A stretch of 64,000 bases of DNA from a virus: the IMG/VR virus record IMGVR_UViG_3300044492_000179; one strand, given 5' to 3'. How positions within the stretch are numbered: the first letter of the stretch is position 1; the number at the start of each line of letters is the position of its first letter. The notes under the pieces were generated by a model. It did no database searches, had not been told where the DNA came from, and was given only the letters and a program-made list of their open reading frames with translations. Shown one piece after another: positions 33,535-47,621 of the stretch. A program made the position numbers and the translations under genes.

Positions 33535-35121
33535 TCACGCCGCATCCTCTGTGGCCGCCTGGTCCGCCGCCTCCTGCGCGGCTTGATCGGCGGCCTCCTT
33601 GTCTCTGGCGTCCTTCTCGGCCTGCTCGCTCGGCGTCAGTGGCTGCGTGGCAGCGGCGGTATGAACCGCAAACACCAGATCGAGCCGTTCCGCGCGCGCC
33701 TGATCGGCCGCAATTCGCAGATCGTTCTCCTCCGGGTCCGACCCTTCGGCTTCGATCACGTCGCTGCGGCTCTTGAAGCCCGCATCGACGGCGAGTTTTT
33801 CAGCCTGACGATCCTTCAGCGGATCAACCCAATCGTTGCGCTGAGGTATCCACTTCGCACGCTGATAGCGCGCCTGATCCGCCAGATACTCACTCGCTCC
33901 TATCGGGACTGCCTGCGCCAACACCGCCGTGTCGAGCCACCGCTTCCAGATCGGAGTGCACATCTGGAACACGATGATCTGATGCTGGAACTGCTCGAGC
34001 TTGCGCCTGTATTCCACGATGGAGCCGCGCAACGAGGAATAGTTCGCGCGTCGAAGGTCTGACGTTCCGACCGAATATGGAATGCCGAGAGCAGAGTAGA
34101 TCGCCAACTGCTGGCGATATTGATAGGCCTCATAAGTGCCACCGACATCGGCGGGCTCGGAGAACTTGATGTCCTCGCCCGGAAGCAGTGTCTGCATGGT
34201 GCCCGGTTCCAAACCCGACAGCCCGATGTTCTCCTGCGGGGCGCTGGTGTCCACGCCATCGATGGGGATGACGTCCTCGGGGGTCGGTGTCGTGATAAAA
34301 CCAGCGAACATCGCCGCAATGCGTTTGCGCTCCAGCTCGGCGTCGTCGTACTGATCGAGCAAGAACATTCGCACCAGCGCCGGGGTGATCAGGGGCACAC
34401 CGCGCATCTGACCGGGCCGCGTGCATTTGAAGATGTGCAGCACCTCGGACGCCGGAATTCGCACCGGGGCAAGCGATGCCATCTGCACTTCAATCGGCAT
34501 GTCGCCCGGATGCGTCGGATAGAACCAATACGCTGCACGCTTGCCCAGCAGATCAAGCTCGATACCGTTCATGATCCAGTTGCCGTTCGGCGCTTGCCGG
34601 TTGAACCAGTACGGACACATCTCGCTTTCGAGCAGTTGCACCTGCATCGGCACCACATACCCGTCATCCGGCTTGCGATTGCGAAAGCGGATGAACACCT
34701 CACCGGCTTCGAATATCGAGCGCGCTGCTATGGTTTGCATTCCGTAAAAGTCGGCAATGCCGTCCGCGTCCGTCTGGTCGGTCCAGTCCAGCCACGTCTG
34801 CATGATGGTCTGACGCAGATCGGCATCAGCCTCGTCGCTCAGCAGTGACGATGGCTTGATGCCTGTGCCGATCAGATTTGCAACGAAGCTCTCGCAGGCG
34901 GCACTGGCGTGCGGGTTGTTGCGCAGTGCATCGCGCGCGCGGGCGCGCAGCACGGCACCTGTCGCGGACAGTATGACGTTTGTAGTGTACTGGGTCGGCA
35001 TCCACGACTTCAGCCGCCGCCGCTGCCCGCCGCCGTCATACTGATTGCGTGCGCTCTTGCTGGTCTTAGAGATGAACCGCCCCAGAATGCCTTCCGACAG
35101 GATGTCGCGCACGGTGCCCAT
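33535..35121 (-). CDS. Portal protein, lambda family
   Basis: LRARARDALRNNP, RPGQMRGVP, NYSSLRG, WVDPLKD. Confidence 0.95.
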   Translation of the reverse strand: MGTVRDILSEGILGRFISKTSKSARNQYDGGGQRRRLKSWMPTQYTTNVILSATGAVLRARARDALRNNPHASAACESFVANLIGTGIKPSSLLSDEADADLRQTIMQTWLDWTDQTDADGIADFYGMQTIAARSIFEAGEVFIRFRNRKPDDGYVVPMQVQLLESEMCPYWFNRQAPNGNWIMNGIELDLLGKRAAYWFYPTHPGDMPIEVQMASLAPVRIPASEVLHIFKCTRPGQMRGVPLITPALVRMFLLDQYDDAELERKRIAAMFAGFITTPTPEDVIPIDGVDTSAPQENIGLSGLEPGTMQTLLPGEDIKFSEPADVGGTYEAYQYRQQLAIYSALGIPYSVGTSDLRRANYSSLRGSIVEYRRKLEQFQHQIIVFQMCTPIWKRWLDTAVLAQAVPIGASEYLADQARYQRAKWIPQRNDWVDPLKDRQAEKLAVDAGFKSRSDVIEAEGSDPEENDLRIAADQARAERLDLVFAVHTAAATQPLTPSEQAEKDARDKEAADQAAQEAADQAATEDAA

Positions 35122-35566: not shown

Positions 35567-37606
35567 TCAGGCTCCGAGATAGCTCGATCTGATGATGCGT
35601 CTAGCCCTTCGACCGCGCTGTAATGGTGGCGGGACGGGTGGCGGATCAGGAGCGGTTGTCGCTACCTCGGATGGGGTTGCTGGCTGCCTGCCACCGGCAT
35701 CCTTAGTGCCATTGTCAAGCTTTTGCAATGGTATGCGCTGCACGTTGAGCAAATAGCCAGCCGCCGCCTGCTGGGCCTCCACGTCAAAAAAATGATTATC
35801 CCTCGACCGCTGCACCCACTCCACGCGCCCGGTTGGACGCTTCAGCCGCGCCTCAGATACGAGCTGATGGCAGTAGTCGTCATCCACGCCCTTGAACACG
35901 TGCCAGCCGCCGACATGATCTTCCGGCCAGCGCAGCCGCTCGTGCACCCAGCTTTTCCAGTGGTCGGTATCGAGCCGCACGAGGTCGAGACCGTACTTCG
36001 CAGCGCGGCCATCCTTGCGGTTGACCTCGATCTTGCTGATGAGCAACGGCGTGCGCATGGGCGACGACGAGCCCTTTGTCGGCCGCACCCTGCGCGGGAA
36101 CCGGCGGCAGAACTCATAGACTCGATTGAGCGGCAATGTGTCGGTCTTACCAGGGCGGAAACCACTATCGATGAAGGCAAGCCGGATTGCCATGCCGTCG
36201 ATCGGCTGCACGACAAGGTCGCCCAGCGCATTCCAAATATCCTCCTCGGTGGTGTCGCCGCGCAGGTAACCGTAGTTGATCAGCCACGAGCTGGCGCGTG
36301 CACCCCAGCCCCTGACGGCCCACGGGATCGAATGCCGTTGCACGTCGCAGGCCAGCGTCAGATAGAGCACGTCCTCTGGCACCTCGCCGCGCTTGTAGGT
36401 GGCCTTCGCGGACTTTTCCTTGATCTCCATCCATTCGGGGACTTCGCCGCCGCCCGGCGAATAGAGCTCGCCGAAGCCGGCGTTGAAAGCCTGCTGCACC
36501 ATGGCGTCGTCGCCGGACTGCTGCGCCTCGACCCGCACCGCCACGCGCTCACCGATGGTGACAAACGGCGAGGCCAGGCCCGAGCACCAGTACGACGCAG
36601 ACTTGGTATCAGGCGGCTTGCCCTCGACATTGCCGTCTTTGTCGACGGTCTGCCCTGGGGCGACATAGCGCCCGCGCTCGTTCATCTCGGCCTTGTGAGC
36701 CTCCACGATCACGCCATGGCACGAGGGGCATTCCAAGAATGTTTCACGTGACGCCTGCAGCGGGGTTGCCTTCAGCGGAAACTTCAACAAGTCGGATCGC
36801 GGCACGAAATATTCGCCACAGTGTGGGCACGGCCAGCACCAGTGATGCCGCGTGCCTTGCTGCCAGAGCTGCCAGACCGGGCTGTCGATGTCCTCGACAT
36901 CCACCGGGTCCCAGAAGAACAGGCCCGACGCCGCGTCCTGGACGGCCGCCACCCGCCCGCGCTTCGGCGTTGACGTCACCACGCAAACAAAGTCGGCATA
37001 GGTATCGCCGCGCCGTTCGACCAATCCCAGCGGGCCGCCCTGCTCATTCACGTTGTCGCGCATCTCGTCGTATTCATCGACCAGCGCCAGCACGGCAGGA
37101 TCGGACTTGAGCGCAGCAGACGACCCCGAATGCGCCAAACGGAATGGCACCCCAGCTACGACCTTGCGAGTCTTGGTCATGCGCTTGCCGCGGCCCACCT
37201 TCTCGACCAGCGTCGGCGCCCCATCCAGCAACGCCATCACGCGCGGCTCGAACTGCTCGGACAAGAATTGCTTGTTGGGCCCGACGTACAAGATCGGGCC
37301 GGGACGCTGATCGAGCCGCTGGCCAGCCACGTCTAAGAGACATTCGGTTTTTCCAACCTGCGATCCGAACACCAGCACGACGCGCTTGTACTGGCCCGAC
37401 GCAATCACGCGCTCGGGCTCGATGATGTACGGCGTCAGATACGGATCACGCGGTCCCGGCACTCCCGATGTCTGCGGATGCGTCCGGTTGAGCACCGCCC
37501 AGCGATCCGGCTCCATCGGACGCGAAGGACGAGCCAGCAGCGCGACGCGCTCCCAGAGCTTTCGTTCTTTCGGTGGCAACATCGGCGATTGCATTAAGGA
37601 TGTCAT
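35567..37606 (-). CDS. Terminase large subunit (lambda gpA family); start may be 37582
   Basis: Walker A GSQVGKT, Walker B LVDEYD, STP, WPCPHCG, LACDVQ, HFFDVE. Confidence 0.95.
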   Translation of the reverse strand: MTSLMQSPMLPPKERKLWERVALLARPSRPMEPDRWAVLNRTHPQTSGVPGPRDPYLTPYIIEPERVIASGQYKRVVLVFGSQVGKTECLLDVAGQRLDQRPGPILYVGPNKQFLSEQFEPRVMALLDGAPTLVEKVGRGKRMTKTRKVVAGVPFRLAHSGSSAALKSDPAVLALVDEYDEMRDNVNEQGGPLGLVERRGDTYADFVCVVTSTPKRGRVAAVQDAASGLFFWDPVDVEDIDSPVWQLWQQGTRHHWCWPCPHCGEYFVPRSDLLKFPLKATPLQASRETFLECPSCHGVIVEAHKAEMNERGRYVAPGQTVDKDGNVEGKPPDTKSASYWCSGLASPFVTIGERVAVRVEAQQSGDDAMVQQAFNAGFGELYSPGGGEVPEWMEIKEKSAKATYKRGEVPEDVLYLTLACDVQRHSIPWAVRGWGARASSWLINYGYLRGDTTEEDIWNALGDLVVQPIDGMAIRLAFIDSGFRPGKTDTLPLNRVYEFCRRFPRRVRPTKGSSSPMRTPLLISKIEVNRKDGRAAKYGLDLVRLDTDHWKSWVHERLRWPEDHVGGWHVFKGVDDDYCHQLVSEARLKRPTGRVEWVQRSRDNHFFDVEAQQAAAGYLLNVQRIPLQKLDNGTKDAGGRQPATPSEVATTAPDPPPVPPPLQRGRRARRIIRSSYLGA

Positions 37607-38270: not shown

Positions 38271-38460
38271 ATGTCAAGTAAAGCCACCAAAGAGACCGCC
38301 GATACTGCCAACCTGTTGTGGGGCGCGAGGGCCATTGCCGATTATGCCGGGCTGCCAGTGAGCAAGCTGTATCACCTGCTTAAGATCGGCGCGCTCGACG
38401 GGGTTGTTACAAAGTTGTCGCACAAGGTGATCGTCGCCAGGAAAAGCGACGTGGCGCTGC
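38271..38460 (+). pseudogene. Excisionase-like HTH fragment
   Basis: LLWGARAIADYAGLPVSKLYHLLKIG pattern; sequence loses coherence after about 38455. Confidence 0.45.
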
Positions 38461-38854
38461 TGCCGCAGCGCGGCCGCCTGCGGTACCGGACTCTGCCGTG
38501 CGAGCCGGCGCCGCCGCTCAATCGAGGCCTGCCGATCCCCCCGGCGTCGGCCGGTGTGTCGCCGTCGACATGCGCGGCGCGAAAGCCGCGATCGGTGAAG
38601 CGCTCGGCGACGAGCTGAGAGTGTCTGTAGTCGTGCGGGCGATCGCCGCGGGCACTAAGAAAAACTGAAAACCCCGCGCCGCGCCCCAAGCCCCGCCAGG
38701 ATCGGCGGGATTTTTCTTGAAGTGCTTCAGCTCCCAGCCTGACGATTCAGCGCTGCTGCTGACATGGCGGTGCCTTTCCAAGGGATACTGGCTTGCGGTG
38801 ACAACGCGGCTCCCTTGGGAGACGCTGTAGGCGACTGCAAAATAAATACGGATT

Positions 38855-38872
38855 AATAGCGTATCTGCTATT
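38855..38872. promoter_or_regulatory. Operator-like palindrome AATAG-N8-CTATT overlapping a -35 box
   Basis: AATAG cgtatctg CTATT; same geometry at 51192-51213 and 58446-58466. Confidence 0.6.
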
Positions 38873-38899
38873 TACAGGTTAGGCCTGTACCGCTATATT
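38871..38899 (+). promoter_or_regulatory. Sigma70-type promoter
   Basis: TTTACA (38871-38876), 17-nt spacer, TATATT (38894-38899) in an AT-rich patch upstream of a plus-strand gene cluster. Confidence 0.65.
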
Positions 38900-39082
38900 A
38901 CGACTATCAGCAACGGGGCAGCGCCCCACTTCCCTCGGGAGACGATCCGATGACCAGCCTGATGACTAACGCCGCCATCATCCTCGACAACATCGGCGGC
39001 AACGACGCCGAAGTGCAAATGACCGCGTGCATGTGGATGGCCAAGGCCATCGCCTGGATTTTAACCTGAGGAGGATGAATCG

Positions 39083-39385
39083 GTGACCGAAATTCTGTTC
39101 GACCGCCTTGCTTATATGGATCGCCTTAAACGGGCTGGCATCAATGAGGATCACGCCCGCGCTCATGCCGAAGCAATGGACGAAGCCTTACGGGAAAGCG
39201 TGGCGACTAGGCACGATGTCGCTGCGGTGCGGATCGAAATCACTGCGGTCAAGGCCGATCTTGCTCTGCTGGGAATCTCGTTACGGCACGAGATAGCCTT
39301 GGCAGTCCGCGACATGACGATCCGCACGGGGCTGATGTCGGTAGCCGTGGTGACGATCCTCGCCAGCCTCAAGTTTTTCGTATGA
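39083..39385 (+). CDS. DUF1640/CCDC90-like coiled-coil membrane protein
   Basis: FDRLAYMDRLKRAG....ARAHAEA...VAT..D, coiled coil, C-terminal TM; RBS GAGGAG. Confidence 0.8.
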   Translation: MTEILFDRLAYMDRLKRAGINEDHARAHAEAMDEALRESVATRHDVAAVRIEITAVKADLALLGISLRHEIALAVRDMTIRTGLMSVAVVTILASLKFFV

Positions 39386-39624
39386 CCGGCGATCAAATCC
39401 GCAAAGCTCGTAAAACTCTTGGCGACATGTGGGGCCTCGACAGGCCGCTACGTGCCGCCGAGGTTGGTCGCCTCCTGCGTCTCAAAGGCCGCGATCCGGG
39501 TGCCACCGTATTGGACTGGGAGACGGGCAAGACCCCGGTGACCGGTCCCGTCTCGGTCGCCATCGAGATGATGCTCGCGGGCGCCAAGCCGCCCACCTTC
39601 AACGACGAGTTCGAACAGACGTGA
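39382..39624 (+). CDS. XRE-like HTH protein
   Basis: MTGDQIRKAR..LG...TVLDWETGKTPV.GPV. Confidence 0.7.
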   Translation: MTGDQIRKARKTLGDMWGLDRPLRAAEVGRLLRLKGRDPGATVLDWETGKTPVTGPVSVAIEMMLAGAKPPTFNDEFEQT

Positions 39625-39731
39625 TTGGCGCCGAAGCGCAAATCTTTGGCACGGAAGCGTAAGTCGGTTGGCGGGCCAGCCGGCTACTTAACAACCGGAA
39701 CCATTAACCCCACAACCATTGGAGCACGCTA

Positions 39732-40424
39732 ATGACCCCCAACAATGCCCGCTTCGCCAAGTTCGTCGGCTATCCCATGTTGGGGCTGACCCTGCTTGCA
39801 TTTGCCCACGCTGCAACAACTCCAGACAAGCCGCGCGCCGCACCCATCGTACCTGCCAAGCAACTCGCCGCAATGGTGGGTGGCGTCAAGGCAGATTACA
39901 TCATCATCGCCAAGGACAAGGAAGCATTTGTCTTGGGCTGCGCCATTCTTAACGAAGACGCACTGAGCACCGGCAAGGCAACAGGACGAATTTTCGACCC
40001 CAGTGATTCTGACCATTGTCGTGGCATCGCCGTTGGCACCGCCGTTCTTTCGCAGAAACGCTTCCGCAACGCGGTCTGTGTGCTGCCAGAGGAGGCTTCA
40101 CCGGCATGCGTCTGGGTGTTGGACGACGAACTTAAACCGGTGCAGGCTACCGCAGTACCCGCCGCGGCGACCACGCGCCCGGTGGCCAGGCCAGCACCTG
40201 CCGCGCGCGAGACTGACGAGCAACGCACCGCCAGAGCTGTTGCGACCTGGATTGCCTACGACAACGAGTGCGCAAGGCTTCCTGATCAGGTCAAGGCCGA
40301 CATTGGTGATGTGATCGGCACTATCTCGCGGCCTGCCATGAAAGCAGCAACCGACGAGGTTGTCCGCCGCGTGGCTGTTGAGGGCAACGCCCGCTTCTGC
40401 GCGGCCCTTCGGTTTGGGTTCTGA
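39732..40424 (+). CDS. Secreted or membrane-anchored hypothetical protein
   Basis: Signal-like GYPMLGLTLLAFAHAA; two Cys-containing subdomains separated by an Ala/Pro linker. Confidence 0.6.
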   Translation: MTPNNARFAKFVGYPMLGLTLLAFAHAATTPDKPRAAPIVPAKQLAAMVGGVKADYIIIAKDKEAFVLGCAILNEDALSTGKATGRIFDPSDSDHCRGIAVGTAVLSQKRFRNAVCVLPEEASPACVWVLDDELKPVQATAVPAAATTRPVARPAPAARETDEQRTARAVATWIAYDNECARLPDQVKADIGDVIGTISRPAMKAATDEVVRRVAVEGNARFCAALRFGF

Positions 40425-40782: not shown

Positions 40783-41592
40783 TCAGGCGCTGGCGCGCTC
40801 GGACAAAGACTTGGCCTCGCCAGACTCGCGATCCTGCTTGACGGCGGCAAAGGTCTGCCCGCTCGCCTCGGACCGCGGTGCGGCCAGTGACATTCTGCCA
40901 ACGCAGCACAGCCACATCGACATAGGCGGAATGATCGTGGTGCCAGAGCCGACGAACGGATCGTATACGCCGTCCCCCGGCTTCGAGTTGTTCTCAATCG
41001 GGCGCTTCATGCACTCGACAGGCTTCTGCGTGCCGTGGCCGGTTTCCGATTTCACCGGCTTGTCGATTTGCCAGAGCGTCGATTGTGTCCGGTCGCCTTG
41101 CCAGTGCGCCGTCTTGCTTTTGCGCACAGCGTACCAACACGGCTCATGCTGGACGTGATAATTTCCACGACCGATGGGGAACTGCTGCTTGGCCCAGATG
41201 ATCTGCATCCGAACCTCAAAGCCTGCGGCGACTAACGCCGCGTGATGGGCAACCTGCATGGCACCCGGCGGGTGCCATGCATACGCGACATCGCCGGGAA
41301 ACAAGGCCCATGCTTCGCGCCAGTCGCTGCGGTCGTCATTCAACACCAGCCCTATGGCGCGACCGCCATAGGGCTTACCGTTTGCACGGTCAGCCCGATT
41401 GCGCCAGTCGGGGTCATAGTCCACCCCATACGGCGGGTCGGTCACCATCAGGTGCGGCTTGGCACCGCCGAGCACCTTGGCGACGTCGTCGGCATTGGTC
41501 GCGTCACCGCACAGCAGCCGGTGGCCACTTTGAGGCTCGGCCTGAAATTCGGTGCCGCAATGCTCGCATGTGCATGCGAACGTCATGCGCAT
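40783..41592 (-). pseudogene. Beta-class DNA methyltransferase (DPPY) with apparent internal deletion/frameshift near 3' end
   Basis: HRLLCGDAT, VTDPPY, HGTQKPVECM, DPFVGSGTT. The expected AAE.TGR.C...E segment is missing and SAYVDVAVLRWQNVTG continues in another frame. Confidence 0.75.
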
Positions 41593-42587
41593 TCCTCCGA
41601 TCTAACTAGATCCGAGAAGATGTACCCGTCGGCATGTACGGCAATGCGGCCGCTTTGCTGCTGCCACCGTTGGATTATTACATCGACATAACCCGGCGAA
41701 ATCTCGCAGCCCATACCACGCCGCCCGGTTCGCTCGGCAGCAATGATGGTTGAACCGCTCCCGCAAAACGGATCGAACACAGTGTCGTTAGGGTCGGTGA
41801 ACGCATTGCAAAAGAATTCCGGCAGGCCAACCGGGAACGCAGCCGCATGTCCGGTCGCATCATGCGATGCGGTGAATGTCGGGAGGCGATTGCCGGGATA
41901 AGCGAGGCCGGGACCGATATATTCCCCAGGAGCCGCGGACGACCCCTGCTTGTCGGCCATACGCGCCGGCGTCCCGTGATGACGGCGCTTAGCGGCCCCG
42001 AATATTTCGACATTACCGCCTTGTTCGGTGGCCCCTGATGTATTTCCAACACCCGGTCCACCAGCGCGCGGCGCGTTTTCGCTTTCGTGGCGGACAGCAT
42101 CGGGCCGCATCTTCCATCGGCCGCGAGCAAACTGATAGATCGGCTCGAACTGGTTCTTGAACCGCTGCGTGACGCCTTTCGGCACGCCGTAACGTTCCCA
42201 GCAGAATTCGGTCGCAAAATGCCAACCCCAATGACGCACGTGAGCTATGACCAAATCCATCACGTAGAGCGACGTGTCGAGCCCGTCGACGCTTGGCTTG
42301 ATGTTGACGAACCACGACCCATCGGCGGCGATGTGGCTCGCCACGTTCCCAGCGACCGGCTTGAACCACTCGACGTAAGCGTCGGGAGGGACCGGACGAA
42401 ACGTCGTAGTCGCATCGTATTCGCGCTGCTCGGCGTAGGGCGGTGATGTGAATGCCAAATTGATCTCCGCTCCATCGACCAGACGATCAACGTCGGCGGG
42501 ACTGCGGCTATCGCCGCACAACACCCGGTGCCCGCCCTGCGGCGTGGCGGAGAATTCATGCTGGCAGTGTTCACACCGGCACTTCAT
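41583..42587 (-). CDS. Beta-class N4C/N6A DNA methyltransferase (SPPY)
   Basis: HRVLCGDSR, FTSPPY, HAAAFPVGL, DPFCGSGST, GCEISPGYVDVIIQRW; ATG overlaps the ParB stop. Confidence 0.9.
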   Translation of the reverse strand: MKCRCEHCQHEFSATPQGGHRVLCGDSRSPADVDRLVDGAEINLAFTSPPYAEQREYDATTTFRPVPPDAYVEWFKPVAGNVASHIAADGSWFVNIKPSVDGLDTSLYVMDLVIAHVRHWGWHFATEFCWERYGVPKGVTQRFKNQFEPIYQFARGRWKMRPDAVRHESENAPRAGGPGVGNTSGATEQGGNVEIFGAAKRRHHGTPARMADKQGSSAAPGEYIGPGLAYPGNRLPTFTASHDATGHAAAFPVGLPEFFCNAFTDPNDTVFDPFCGSGSTIIAAERTGRRGMGCEISPGYVDVIIQRWQQQSGRIAVHADGYIFSDLVRSEECA

Positions 42588-43201
42588 TTGCGGACCGCGC
42601 GTTCGAGTGGCATGGACTTCTTGCACTTCGGGCATTGCACCGTGGCACCGAGCAGCCATAGATCACCGGTGCGCGAGACCGGCACCGCCGGCGGCTCCGG
42701 CACGTCGTCGGGATCGGCCTGCGGATCGAGATTGACATTGAGCAGCCCTGCCAGCTCGGCATCGTCAAACCCGATCTTCGAAAGGTCGAACCCGAACTCC
42801 CGCAGGTCGACCAACTCCATGCGCAGAACCGCCTCGTCCCATCCAGCGTTGAGCCCGATCTGGTTGTCGGCGATGACATACGCCCGCCGCTGCGCCTCCG
42901 TCCAACCGCGCGCCACGACGACCGGCACTTGGCCGGGCGGAACGTCGGCGCCGCTCGCCATTCGGATCGTCTCGCCGGCCCCATAGATCGCCGCGGCCGC
43001 CAGCACCCGGCCGTGCCCCGCGATGATTTCACCGTCGACTGCCCCCTCGCAGCCCACGGCAATCAACACCGGAACCGTCCAACCCCACTCCCGCATCGAG
43101 GCGGCGATCTCCAAGACCTGCTCGTCCGAATGGGTGCGCGCGTTTCTGGCGTAAGCGGTCAGCCCCGCCACTTCCCGAAAGCTTACCGCCGCGCGTGCCA
43201 T
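42584..43201 (-). CDS. ParB/Srx-like N-terminal module of a split ParB-methyltransferase
   Basis: YARNARTHSDEQV..IAASMREWGW..PVL, IIAGHGRVLAA, AYVIADN, GWDEAVL, ends GDLWLLG...CPKC. Confidence 0.85.
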   Translation of the reverse strand: MARAAVSFREVAGLTAYARNARTHSDEQVLEIAASMREWGWTVPVLIAVGCEGAVDGEIIAGHGRVLAAAAIYGAGETIRMASGADVPPGQVPVVVARGWTEAQRRAYVIADNQIGLNAGWDEAVLRMELVDLREFGFDLSKIGFDDAELAGLLNVNLDPQADPDDVPEPPAVPVSRTGDLWLLGATVQCPKCKKSMPLERAVRK

Positions 43202-45980: not shown

Positions 45981-47621
45981 TCAATCGAGTGGCAAGCGGC
46001 CGCCGGCGAACCAATCCGCGGCGCACTCGGGGTGCAGCGCCACCGCCTTTTCCCCGGGTTCATTGAGCGCGATCTTGCGAACCTCGCCGGTTGAGCGGTG
46101 GCAGTGCTCGCAGGCCGTGCCGGCTTGGGTGGCGCCGGTGTCCTTGAACTTCTCTTTTTGCTGGCTGTTCTTCTGCGCCGGCACGGCCTGTTGAGCGACT
46201 TGGGTCTGGTTGGCCTGGCGCATGGCGATGGCTCGAGCGGCCGCCTTGCCCTTCTCGGTGAGTTCCCACTTGTCGCGGTTGCTGTCGGTAAATGCGGGCT
46301 TTGGTTTCTTGGCGAGCGCAGCGAGCATGCGCTGCACCTTCGACTTGTGCGGCTCGCCGCTGCCGAGCAGGAAGCCGCAGGCGCGCGCCAGGTCGGCGAC
46401 CGATTGACCGGAAAGCTTGAGCATCTCGGTCAGCAGTCGGTCCTCTTCGGTGCGCTGCTTGTACGCCTGCTTCTCCTCCTCGCTCTCAGTGATCGGCACG
46501 ACGCGCACCGTCGGCAGCAGGCGACCGTCGGCGTCGGCGAGCTTATCGGTGCGGATCGTTTCCAGTTCGAACGAGAGCGGCTCGAAGCCGGGCCCGCGCA
46601 TCTTGGTGTGATGCAGCACGATCATGTCGGTGGCTTTCCAGGCGGTTAAGTTGCCGTCTATCTCGGCGAGGAACGCGCCACCGCCGCGCGGCACCAATTG
46701 GCTCGGCTCCACCGCGTGCTTGATCGGATGACAGAGCACGAGCACGCACGGACCACCGGGCAAGGTTGTCAGCCGGCGCAGCACGCGCGCGTGCGCACCC
46801 ATCTGCGTGTTCGACAGCTCCTCGTTGCCGAGGAAGTAGGCGGCCGAGGTGTCGACCACGACGAGATCGATCGGTCCGGGCAGGCGCTCGATCTCGGCCT
46901 CGAGCTTTTCGAACATCTTGTCGATGTCGAACACGCCCGGGATAAACGAAATCCAATCCTGCAGTGGATCTCCAGGGCGCCGCGAGTCGGCGCCAATGAC
47001 GCGCATGCGCACGTCGTCAGGGTTCTCGCCGACGAAATAGACGACACGTCCCTTGCGCACGCGATGGCCGAGCAGCATCGCATTCGGCTCGGGCGACGAC
47101 ACCAGCTCGCAGATCAACAACGCGATCGCGGTCTTGGCATGGCCAGTGGCGCCGGTGATCGAATAGATAAACCGCCGTTGCAACATGCCTTCGATCAGGT
47201 AGCTCGGCGCGTGAAACCCTTTCACGAAGTCGGCTTTCGAATAAATGACAAAGGTGCTCTCGGTGCCTTTGCCGTTGGCCTGACCGTTCGGCTTCGGATC
47301 GGGCGCGTCAGGGCCAGGGTGATGATCATCATCCTCGATTGGATCCGGCACGACGTCGCGCTCGGATTGCTCGAAGGCAAACGCGATCGCGGCTTGTATG
47401 CCATCGACCTGGTGCTCGGCCGTGAAGCCGTGCGCCTCGGCCTTAGCCATCAGCCAGTCGACGGCATCGGCCTTGCTCAAACCCTTACGGGTATAGCCGG
47501 CAATCTCTTTTGCGGCCTGTTTGAAAACCCTCCAGCGCGCTTCGCCTGGCGGCACGGTCGTCAGTAGACTTGCCCACGAGTTTAGGCCTTCCGAAAAGCT
47601 TTGGTCTGTGAAGCCGCTCAT
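45981..47621 (-). CDS. AAA ATPase, RepA-like replicative helicase
   Basis: Walker A variant TGATGHAKT, VVYFVGEN, Walker B LVVVDT, HPIK, RGGGAF; C-terminal winged-helix-like part and CxxC...C. Confidence 0.8.
   Translation of the reverse strand: MSGFTDQSFSEGLNSWASLLTTVPPGEARWRVFKQAAKEIAGYTRKGLSKADAVDWLMAKAEAHGFTAEHQVDGIQAAIAFAFEQSERDVVPDPIEDDDHHPGPDAPDPKPNGQANGKGTESTFVIYSKADFVKGFHAPSYLIEGMLQRRFIYSITGATGHAKTAIALLICELVSSPEPNAMLLGHRVRKGRVVYFVGENPDDVRMRVIGADSRRPGDPLQDWISFIPGVFDIDKMFEKLEAEIERLPGPIDLVVVDTSAAYFLGNEELSNTQMGAHARVLRRLTTLPGGPCVLVLCHPIKHAVEPSQLVPRGGGAFLAEIDGNLTAWKATDMIVLHHTKMRGPGFEPLSFELETIRTDKLADADGRLLPTVRVVPITESEEEKQAYKQRTEEDRLLTEMLKLSGQSVADLARACGFLLGSGEPHKSKVQRMLAALAKKPKPAFTDSNRDKWELTEKGKAAARAIAMRQANQTQVAQQAVPAQKNSQQKEKFKDTGATQAGTACEHCHRSTGEVRKIALNEPGEKAVALHPECAADWFAGGRLPLD

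Follow-up and report, generated by a model that had tools for sequence, protein, structure and literature searches.

A phage ParB-methyltransferase split into separate genes with complementary cysteine motifs on either side of the break

Fusions of a ParB domain with an N6_N4 methylase are frequent in phages and prophages, and their ParB part belongs to the ParB-CTPase fold (PMC12704722). In ParB-Tls loci, as summarized in PMC6536676 (citing Iyer et al. 2013), methylase genes lie between the ParB gene and the terminase gene, and ParB has been proposed to direct modification during packaging; stand-alone ParBs beside modification enzymes had also been noted earlier (PMC6536676). Here we describe a locus of a temperate phage (IMG/VR record IMGVR_UViG_3300044492_000179) in which a ParB-like protein and two DNA methylases are encoded by three separate genes; the whole stretch that was analyzed, 64,000 nucleotides (nt), is referred to as the window. 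The locus resembles fused ParB-methyltransferases (PF02195 plus PF01555; phrog_498) in its domains, their order, the junction motifs GD.W.LG and HR.LCGD, and its genomic position. It differs from them in that the domains reside on separate chains, in that each side of the break carries a cysteine (Cys) knuckle (junction Cys were found in 0 of 135 nonredundant fused forms), and in that one ParB accompanies two methylase genes. As in ParB-Tls loci, the modification genes sit between a ParB-like gene and the gene of the terminase large subunit. Unlike in those loci, a 2.4-kb island on the plus strand separates the second methylase gene from the terminase genes, and the summary given in PMC6536676 mentions no device that physically couples ParB to the enzymes.

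The genes for ParB, methylase 1 (MT1), and methylase 2 (MT2) follow one another in the same orientation on the minus strand, as read from the open reading frames (ORFs) of the window (Table 1). ParB is preceded by the ribosome-binding site GGGAGGAAG, while no good site of this kind lies upstream of the MT1 start. The ATGA overlap between ParB and MT1 is read as translational coupling. The C terminus of ParB (in full, ..VSRTGDLWLLGATVQCPKCKKSMPLERAVRK) extends to GDLWLLGATVQCPKCKK and then through 10 further residues, SMPLERAVRK, before the stop codon; the original prediction, which let the protein end at CPKCKK, had the motif right but missed these residues. The start codon of MT1 is the ATG at 42587, and its product begins with MKCRCEHCQHEF..GHRVLCGD (N-terminal sequence, MKCRCEHCQHEFSATPQGGHRVLCGD); that of MT2 is the ATG at 41586, and its product begins with MTFACTCEHCGTEF..GHRLLCGD (N-terminal sequence, MTFACTCEHCGTEFQAEPQSGHRLLCGD). 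An upstream ATG at 42659 was ruled out as the start of MT1, since homologues begin at the Cys head. When the fused-family profile phrog_498 was used, ParB matched positions 39 to 200, MT1 positions 199 to 431, and MT2 positions 201 to 394. The common boundary at about position 200 means that the break falls exactly where the fused proteins stay continuous; in the window, the ParB frame closes with a stop codon after the tail, and MT1 occupies a different frame. The proposed break between GDLWLLG and HRLLCGD was thus borne out by all three ORFs and by the profile positions. The ORFs also agreed with the claim that the two methylases differ in their catalytic motif (SPPY and DPPY) and share an N-terminal Cys head, which has the pattern C.C..C..EF.A.PQ.GHR.LCGD.

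ParB is predicted to consist of an N-terminal domain of the ParB/ParB-CTPase fold (residues 1 to 155) that a linker joins to a C-terminal tail for docking; the tail has the pattern GDLWLLG..CPKC followed by 12 residues. PHROG ParB-like families matched the protein at 1e-42 and 6e-38. A Pfam search at an E value of 0.01 gave no match, PF02195 included, and the ParB orthologues of two related loci, L001 and L003, are annotated with a precomputed PF02195. The phosphate-binding box GxxRxxA(A) is present as GHGRVLAA and is conserved among orthologues. An NCBIfam scan returned only subthreshold matches, one of which was MJ0042_CXXC at the tail. In an alignment of 25 ParB tails with a mean column identity of 57%, every residue spelled out in the pattern GD.WLLGA.V.CP.C was invariant; in the numbering of the window protein, the invariant columns include G179, D180, W182, G185, A186, C190, P191, and C193. 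The alignment indicates that the Cys motifs are not due to chance. An AlphaFold2 (AF2) model of ParB alone was confident for residues 1 to 155 (predicted local distance difference test [pLDDT] score of about 90), while the tail (residues 157 to 205) was disordered (pLDDT, 35 to 57). Compared with most orthologues, the ParB domain of the window (42955 to 43070; residues ~45 to 82) has two short insertions, around AVGCEGAVDGE and YGAGETIRMASGADVPPGQ, the second of which also occurs in the homologue P0138.

In most homologues of MT1 and MT2, ParB and methylase form one protein of about 400 to 540 amino acids (aa), in which GD.W.LG.HR.LCGD runs continuously and the junction lacks Cys. The ParB alignment brought up 160 loci, almost all of them of this fused type without a Cys motif, and no Cys was found between GD.W.LG and HR.LCGD in about 100 fused proteins that were inspected, in agreement with the continuous junction that had been stated for fused phage enzymes. 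A minority of homologues (P0002, P0004, P0005, and P0008) begin exactly at the Cys head; their contigs carry a tailed ParB, a methylase, a second methylase, and a terminase in this order, again with ATGA overlaps. To extend the comparison, DNA patterns were scanned from either side of the break. With the ParB tail as the only pattern (WLLGA.V.CP.C), 12 viral and 45 metagenomic loci were obtained, and wherever the downstream gene was intact it encoded a methylase starting with C..C...F.A.....HR.LCGD, usually followed by a second such methylase. The reciprocal scan on the head alone yielded 20 viral loci, and all 20 had an upstream CPxC-tailed ParB, either directly or behind another headed methylase. 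The partner methylases all carry CxxC ahead of ..F.A.P..GHR.LCGD. Tail and head therefore always occurred together, the co-conservation that the original prediction had anticipated. A fused protein containing the ribbon was sought in both the tail-selected and the head-selected loci, and none was in frame with its partner. In five soil metagenome loci (L177, L185, L187, L214, and L217), the ParB tail ..CPKCRKTSPLERAK continues in frame into a partial ParB, LGIAEIPVMVAAGWSEAQKR..; these represent rearranged or duplicated ParB genes with no adjoining methylase.

In total, about 60 viral and metagenomic loci share the split at the ParB tail, with one or two headed methylases behind each ParB, down to an identity of about 45% and with intact ORFs. 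The original prediction had named one outcome that would speak against it, namely, that the break is a sequencing frameshift and the homologues are fused; these loci, none of them fused, contradict it. Recent decay of a fused gene would likewise leave a functionally meaningless break, and the fused state of most relatives and the visible decay of MT2 in the same operon could be taken in that sense. However, the conserved tail, head, and coupling across these loci do not fit an artifact or a decaying gene, and neither does the recovery of an operon identical to that of the window, the MT2 lesion included, from nine metagenome contigs of at least two samples (with an identical 269-aa MT2 product). 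A frameshift or pseudogene at the break between ParB and MT1 was ruled out on the basis of this conserved split, its varied junction geometry, and the nine identical contigs; a sequencing error is excluded as its cause, and we regard an explanation by artifact or decay as hardly credible.

The geometry of the junctions also bears on whether the two ORFs could be bridged during translation. A programmed frameshift or a reinitiation at ATGA could yield a fused ParB-MT1 with a continuous ribbon, with the separate ORFs as the default products. If the ribosome slipped by -1 on the AAA that precedes the TGA, a plausible CPKC-x16-CEHC ribbon would indeed result, and the joined peptide resembles two-knuckle ribbons. 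The start of the methylase relative to the ParB stop was found at -1, -5, +2, +4, +7, and -11, which covers both alternative frames and never the same frame; the -1 overlap occurred in 16 nonredundant related pairs. These varied frames exclude a uniform frameshift or readthrough fusion, because related junctions would require shifts in opposite directions. Moreover, the sequence before the overlap varies (AAATGA in the window and in L003, CCATGA in L001), no slippery site of the type X_XXY_YYZ is present, and the second methylase has the same head but follows a methylase instead of ParB. A uniform programmed frameshift at the break is thus unlikely as judged from these junctions, and we give translational bridging as a whole very little credence. 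The viral contig L229 (positions 1286 to 2058) constitutes an exception to the tight coupling: about 770 nt without a long ORF separate its CPKC-tailed ParB from the headed methylase, a gap that also speaks against bridging.

Next, the numbers of Cys on the two sides of the junction were compared for nonredundant loci after duplicate removal. Among 23 pairs with a two-Cys tail, the heads contained two, three, or four Cys in 1, 20, and 1 pairs, respectively, plus one three-Cys head that was not counted by the script. Within the head, the two Cys of CxxC are constant, while the third Cys changes its position or is missing. All 12 pairs with a four-Cys tail had methylases with no Cys, and mixed combinations were absent from the nonredundant table. 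The resulting counts (2 plus 2 or 3, 4 plus 0, and 0 plus 0 in the fused forms) are those expected for one four-ligand ribbon that is cut either inside or after the ribbon. The four-Cys tails belong to a second split class on viral contigs (L233 to L253, e.g., L239, L244, and L250), whose ParB carries a complete four-Cys ribbon, GD.WLLGAYYEC.DCGK...C.CG, at an end with the general pattern GD.WLLGA.[FY]EC..C...C.C. The methylases of this class start with (V/M)GKLKLKS.HRLLCGD, lack Cys, and are mostly coupled via an 8-nt overlap. The class shares with the window the same ParB, the retained GD.WLLG strand, the position of the first knuckle, and translational coupling; it differs in that the entire ribbon is on ParB, the methylase is Cys-less, and the chain is interrupted only once the ribbon is complete. 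The two classes give at least two places at which the proposed connector is cut.

To investigate how the separate chains could come together, a complex of MT1 with the last 60 aa of ParB and zinc was modeled in three runs alongside three controls. The interaction prediction score from aligned errors (ipSAE) was 0.89 in all three runs, and the best control reached 0.08; among solved complexes, 58 of 80 attained this mark, as did 2 of 110 mismatched pairs. Contacts agreed between runs by at least 82%, and the pLDDT of the partner was at least 75. In the model, the GDLWLL strand of ParB is placed between the methylase's first strand (HRVLC) and a strand toward its C terminus, and the two knuckles are side by side. 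The tightest contacts were between MT1 H20 to C24 and ParB G179 to L184, between MT1 A316 to A319 and ParB residues 181 to 184, and between MT1 C5 and ParB C190. The ParB tail touched MT1 residues 20 to 24, 298 to 308, and 316 to 319, and the interface on the N-terminal side of MT1 comprised residues 1 to 8, 10 to 12, and 14 to 25. A sequence search found no solved fused ParB-methylase among PDB structures, and the score therefore does not reflect the memory of a PDB complex. Neither chain alone holds both knuckles of a zinc ribbon (ParB contributes CPKC and MT1 C.CEHC), and artificial joining of tail and head gave only subthreshold matches, spanning both halves, to several families of two-knuckle zinc ribbons (IBR_1 at 24.6 bits with a cutoff of 27, Zn_ribbon_6, SprT, and IS1595). 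The modeled strand complementation and the modeled position of C190 beside C5 thus agree with the inter-subunit zinc site put forward in the original prediction, but the MT1 head is predicted to fold alone, so that the dependence of each half on the other is less clear-cut than claimed.

Several observations weigh against a shared ribbon. The modeling output consists of contacts without zinc geometry and lists just one Cys-Cys pair. The pairing of GDLWLL with HRVLC was possibly learned from fused homologues, and a pass for the halves of a split gene signifies likeness to the fused fold and is not proof that these copies bind. The covariation of Cys rests on essentially two clades, and hence on few evolutionary events, so that the clean table does not amount to 35 independent observations. 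In the AF2 model of MT1 alone, head strands 2 to 4 and 11 to 13 formed a hairpin (pLDDT, 81 to 84) followed by a strand at residues 21 to 24; such a confident hairpin without ParB indicates that the head, which usually has three Cys and might bind metal alone, is partly self-sufficient. Finally, the ParB P0206 ends in CxCxxCG..F and is followed by a Mom-family gene without a Cys head, which means that knuckles can occur without a visible partner half.

These points lead to the main rival, in which the Cys motifs are independent of each other. The methylase head would be a zinc knuckle of its own, serving DNA contact or stability, the CPxC of ParB would form a ParB-ParB zinc hook or a stabilizing knuckle, and ParB and the methylases would act separately or interact weakly. 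Many stand-alone ParBs that end in a single CPxCG..F knuckle (e.g., P0191, P0199, P0229, P0246, P0247, P0260, and P0268) fit such an arrangement. However, independent knuckles would explain neither the complementary Cys counts nor the constant company of tail and head; nor would they explain why ParB keeps GDLWLLG, a strand of the methylase fold, on a tail that is disordered alone and scores high against the controls in complex with MT1. We therefore consider independent knuckles rather unlikely.

The reading that we favor, and hold to be probable, is that the parts of a split ParB-methylase come together again through strand complementation and a two-chain zinc ribbon, with one type of ParB tail serving two headed methylases. 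We infer a ParB-Tls modification module whose ParB-methyltransferase is made as separate, translationally coupled chains that would be rejoined without a covalent link. GDLWLL, the initial beta-strand of the methylase fold, would have stayed with ParB on its otherwise disordered tail and would slot between the first strand of the methylase itself (HRVLC) and a C-terminal one (IAVHA). The CPKC of ParB and the N-terminal CxxC of the methylase would then complete one four-Cys zinc ribbon across the interface. Owing to the ATGA overlaps, ParB and MT1 would be produced in the same place and in the same amount. Based on the modeling, the ParB-MT1 heteromer itself is likely, while for the metal site shared between ParB and methylase the chances appear about even. 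Since both methylase genes encode the same head, one type of ParB tail could accept either enzyme. As for the biological role, we infer from the literature that the phage DNA would be methylated around packaging and escape restriction, with ParB guiding the enzymes to DNA.

The two methylases differ in their state of preservation. MT1 matched PF01555 with 108.1 bits (cutoff, 26.7) over profile positions 1 to 219 of 221. Its motif IV precedes motif I, the order of the beta class, and DPFCGSGST followed by IIAAE..GR..G.E is intact; MT1 also aligned in full length to homologues (67 to 80% identity) and gave a good methylase fold in AF2 (predicted template modeling score, 0.77). PDB profile matches comprised N4-cytosine and N6-adenine methylases of the beta class (M.PvuII [1boo], M.MboIIA, M.RsrI, and CcrM). 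MT1 is accordingly classed by its sequence as a beta-class N6/N4 DNA methyltransferase. With regard to base specificity, profile searches with MT1 and with MT2 each matched both N4-cytosine and N6-adenine enzymes; from their motifs, MT1 (SPPY) is possibly an N4-cytosine enzyme and MT2 (DPPY) possibly an N6-adenine enzyme.

MT2 matched PF01555 with 62.8 bits over profile positions 2 to 197 of 221 only. Its head, the DPPY motif, and motif I (DPFVGSGTT) are retained. After DPFVGSGTTII, all six aligned homologues continue with AAE.TGR.C.A.E..P.Y.DV...RWQ; in MT2, about 15 residues of this segment (AAE..GR.C.A.E..) are missing, and the following 20 conserved residues (SAYVDVAVLRWQNVTGRTAV) can be read in another frame only. 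The original frame returns at ..EASGQTFAAVKQDRE, covering the last ~30 residues. The S-adenosylmethionine-binding region is therefore incomplete, with the segment after motif I gone and the next block out of frame. Loss of the cofactor-holding helix and strand after motif I implies that MT2 is very probably inactive: it is likely a pseudogene or at most a noncatalytic remnant, and MT1 is probably the sole active methylase in this phage. The proposal that one ParB docks interchangeable methylases is supported by the two headed methylases that most related loci carry, but in the window itself one of the two is damaged.

The body of MT2 is 85 to 91% identical to those of fused ParB-methylases (P0272 to P0279; 88 to 91% for members such as P0275), whereas the initial ~20 residues correspond to those of the split proteins. 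This combination suggests that heads and bodies are shuffled as modules and that fused and split forms exchanged the adaptor recently. A body about 90% identical to fused enzymes behind a split-type head is also part of a broader proposal, which we put forward tentatively and rate somewhat below even chances: the ribbon cut in its loop, together with the complemented strand, may constitute a natural split-protein connector and portable adaptor by which one DNA-loading protein of the ParB-CTPase fold recruits interchangeable DNA-modifying enzymes.

Table 1. Positions of the ParB-methylase genes, their junction features, and neighboring genes in the window
Feature	Position	Strand	Size or residues	Basis or detail
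ParB-like gene	43201-42584	minus	205 aa	ORF list; phrog_620 ParB-like match 1e-42
ParB tail	42587..42667	minus	residues 179-205	GDLWLLG strand, ATVQ-CPKC (C190, C193), 12 further residues
ParB stop/MT1 start, ATGA overlap	42584..42587	minus		read from sequence
MT1 methylase	42587-41583	minus	334 aa	PF01555; motif IV SPPY
MT1 head	42510..42587	minus	residues 1-26	MKCRCEHCQHEFSATPQGG (C3, C5, C8), then HRVLCGD strand
MT1 motif IV, SPPY	42435-42446	minus	residues 48-51	
GGAGGA, 6 nt upstream of MT2 start	41593-41598	minus		
MT1 stop/MT2 start, ATGA overlap	41583..41586	minus		read from sequence
MT2 methylase	41586-40783	minus	267 aa	PF01555; motif IV DPPY; damaged C-terminal third
MT2 Cys head, intact	41503-41586	minus		
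MT2 motif IV, DPPY	41428-41439	minus		
MT2 lesion	40870..40930	minus		tblastn of intact L003 homologue, alignment with six homologues, frame reading
AAA_25 replication-module protein, upstream of ParB	45981..47621	minus		PF13481
Terminase large subunit (gpA type)	35567..37606	minus		PF05876, PF20454
Lambda-family portal	33535-35121			PF05136

The position of the module upstream of the packaging genes, as originally proposed, agreed with the terminase large-subunit gene found beyond the methylases, as in ParB-Tls loci. Besides the AAA_25 protein, a helix-turn-helix regulator is encoded upstream of ParB. L001 and L003 have the same order of AAA_25, ParB, two methylases, and terminase, with the terminase directly after the methylases. 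The island between MT2 and the terminase genes of the window (38271 to 40424, plus strand) contains ORFs of 115, 100, 80, and 230 aa, none of which matched a Pfam family; it looks like a later insertion (moron). At the locus L256 (positions 546 to 1804), a ParB with the tail ..QQCACPACGHVF, which shows the CxCxxCG..F motif of the methylase heads, shares a 4-nt overlap with a Mom-family gene (PF25680) that lacks a Cys head, and a small terminase gene adjoins.

Few phage uses of the ParB fold are as common as its fusion to a methylase. A natural split allows the halves to be expressed, mutated, and titrated separately, so that the need of methylation for ParB, the choice of sites, and the coupling to packaging become addressable. 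If the proposed assembly is correct, the two-chain zinc ribbon would be a compact addition to the few zinc sites known between proteins, and the locus would show how phages exchange methylase specificities while keeping ParB the same, a point of relevance to the escape from restriction. The connector could then serve ParB-Tls loci in general as a standard for docking, and it could be used as a small metal-dependent heterodimerization module or tag.

Our literature search found no description of a ParB-methylase split with complementary Cys halves, and nothing relevant on split zinc ribbons in methylases; the fusions and the ParB-Tls loci were already known. The closest parallels for the proposed metal site come from unrelated proteins. 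In the Rad50 zinc hook, each of two chains contributes a CxxC, and in the zinc clasp of CD4/CD8 with Lck, each partner contributes two Cys. In the window as well, two Cys per chain would coordinate a single zinc ion tetrahedrally and so link the chains; however, there is no kinship in sequence or fold, and the window would instead represent one ribbon cut in its loop beside a complemented strand. A parallel for the docking is provided by Trm112, a small protein with a zinc knuckle, which adds a beta-strand to the sheet of several methyltransferases and thereby activates them. Like the proposed ParB tail, Trm112 is a zinc-bearing partner that docks to Rossmann-fold methyltransferases by strand addition and serves several of them. 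Unlike the ParB tail, it holds the whole zinc site itself, is not related to ParB, and has RNA and protein methyltransferases as its clients.

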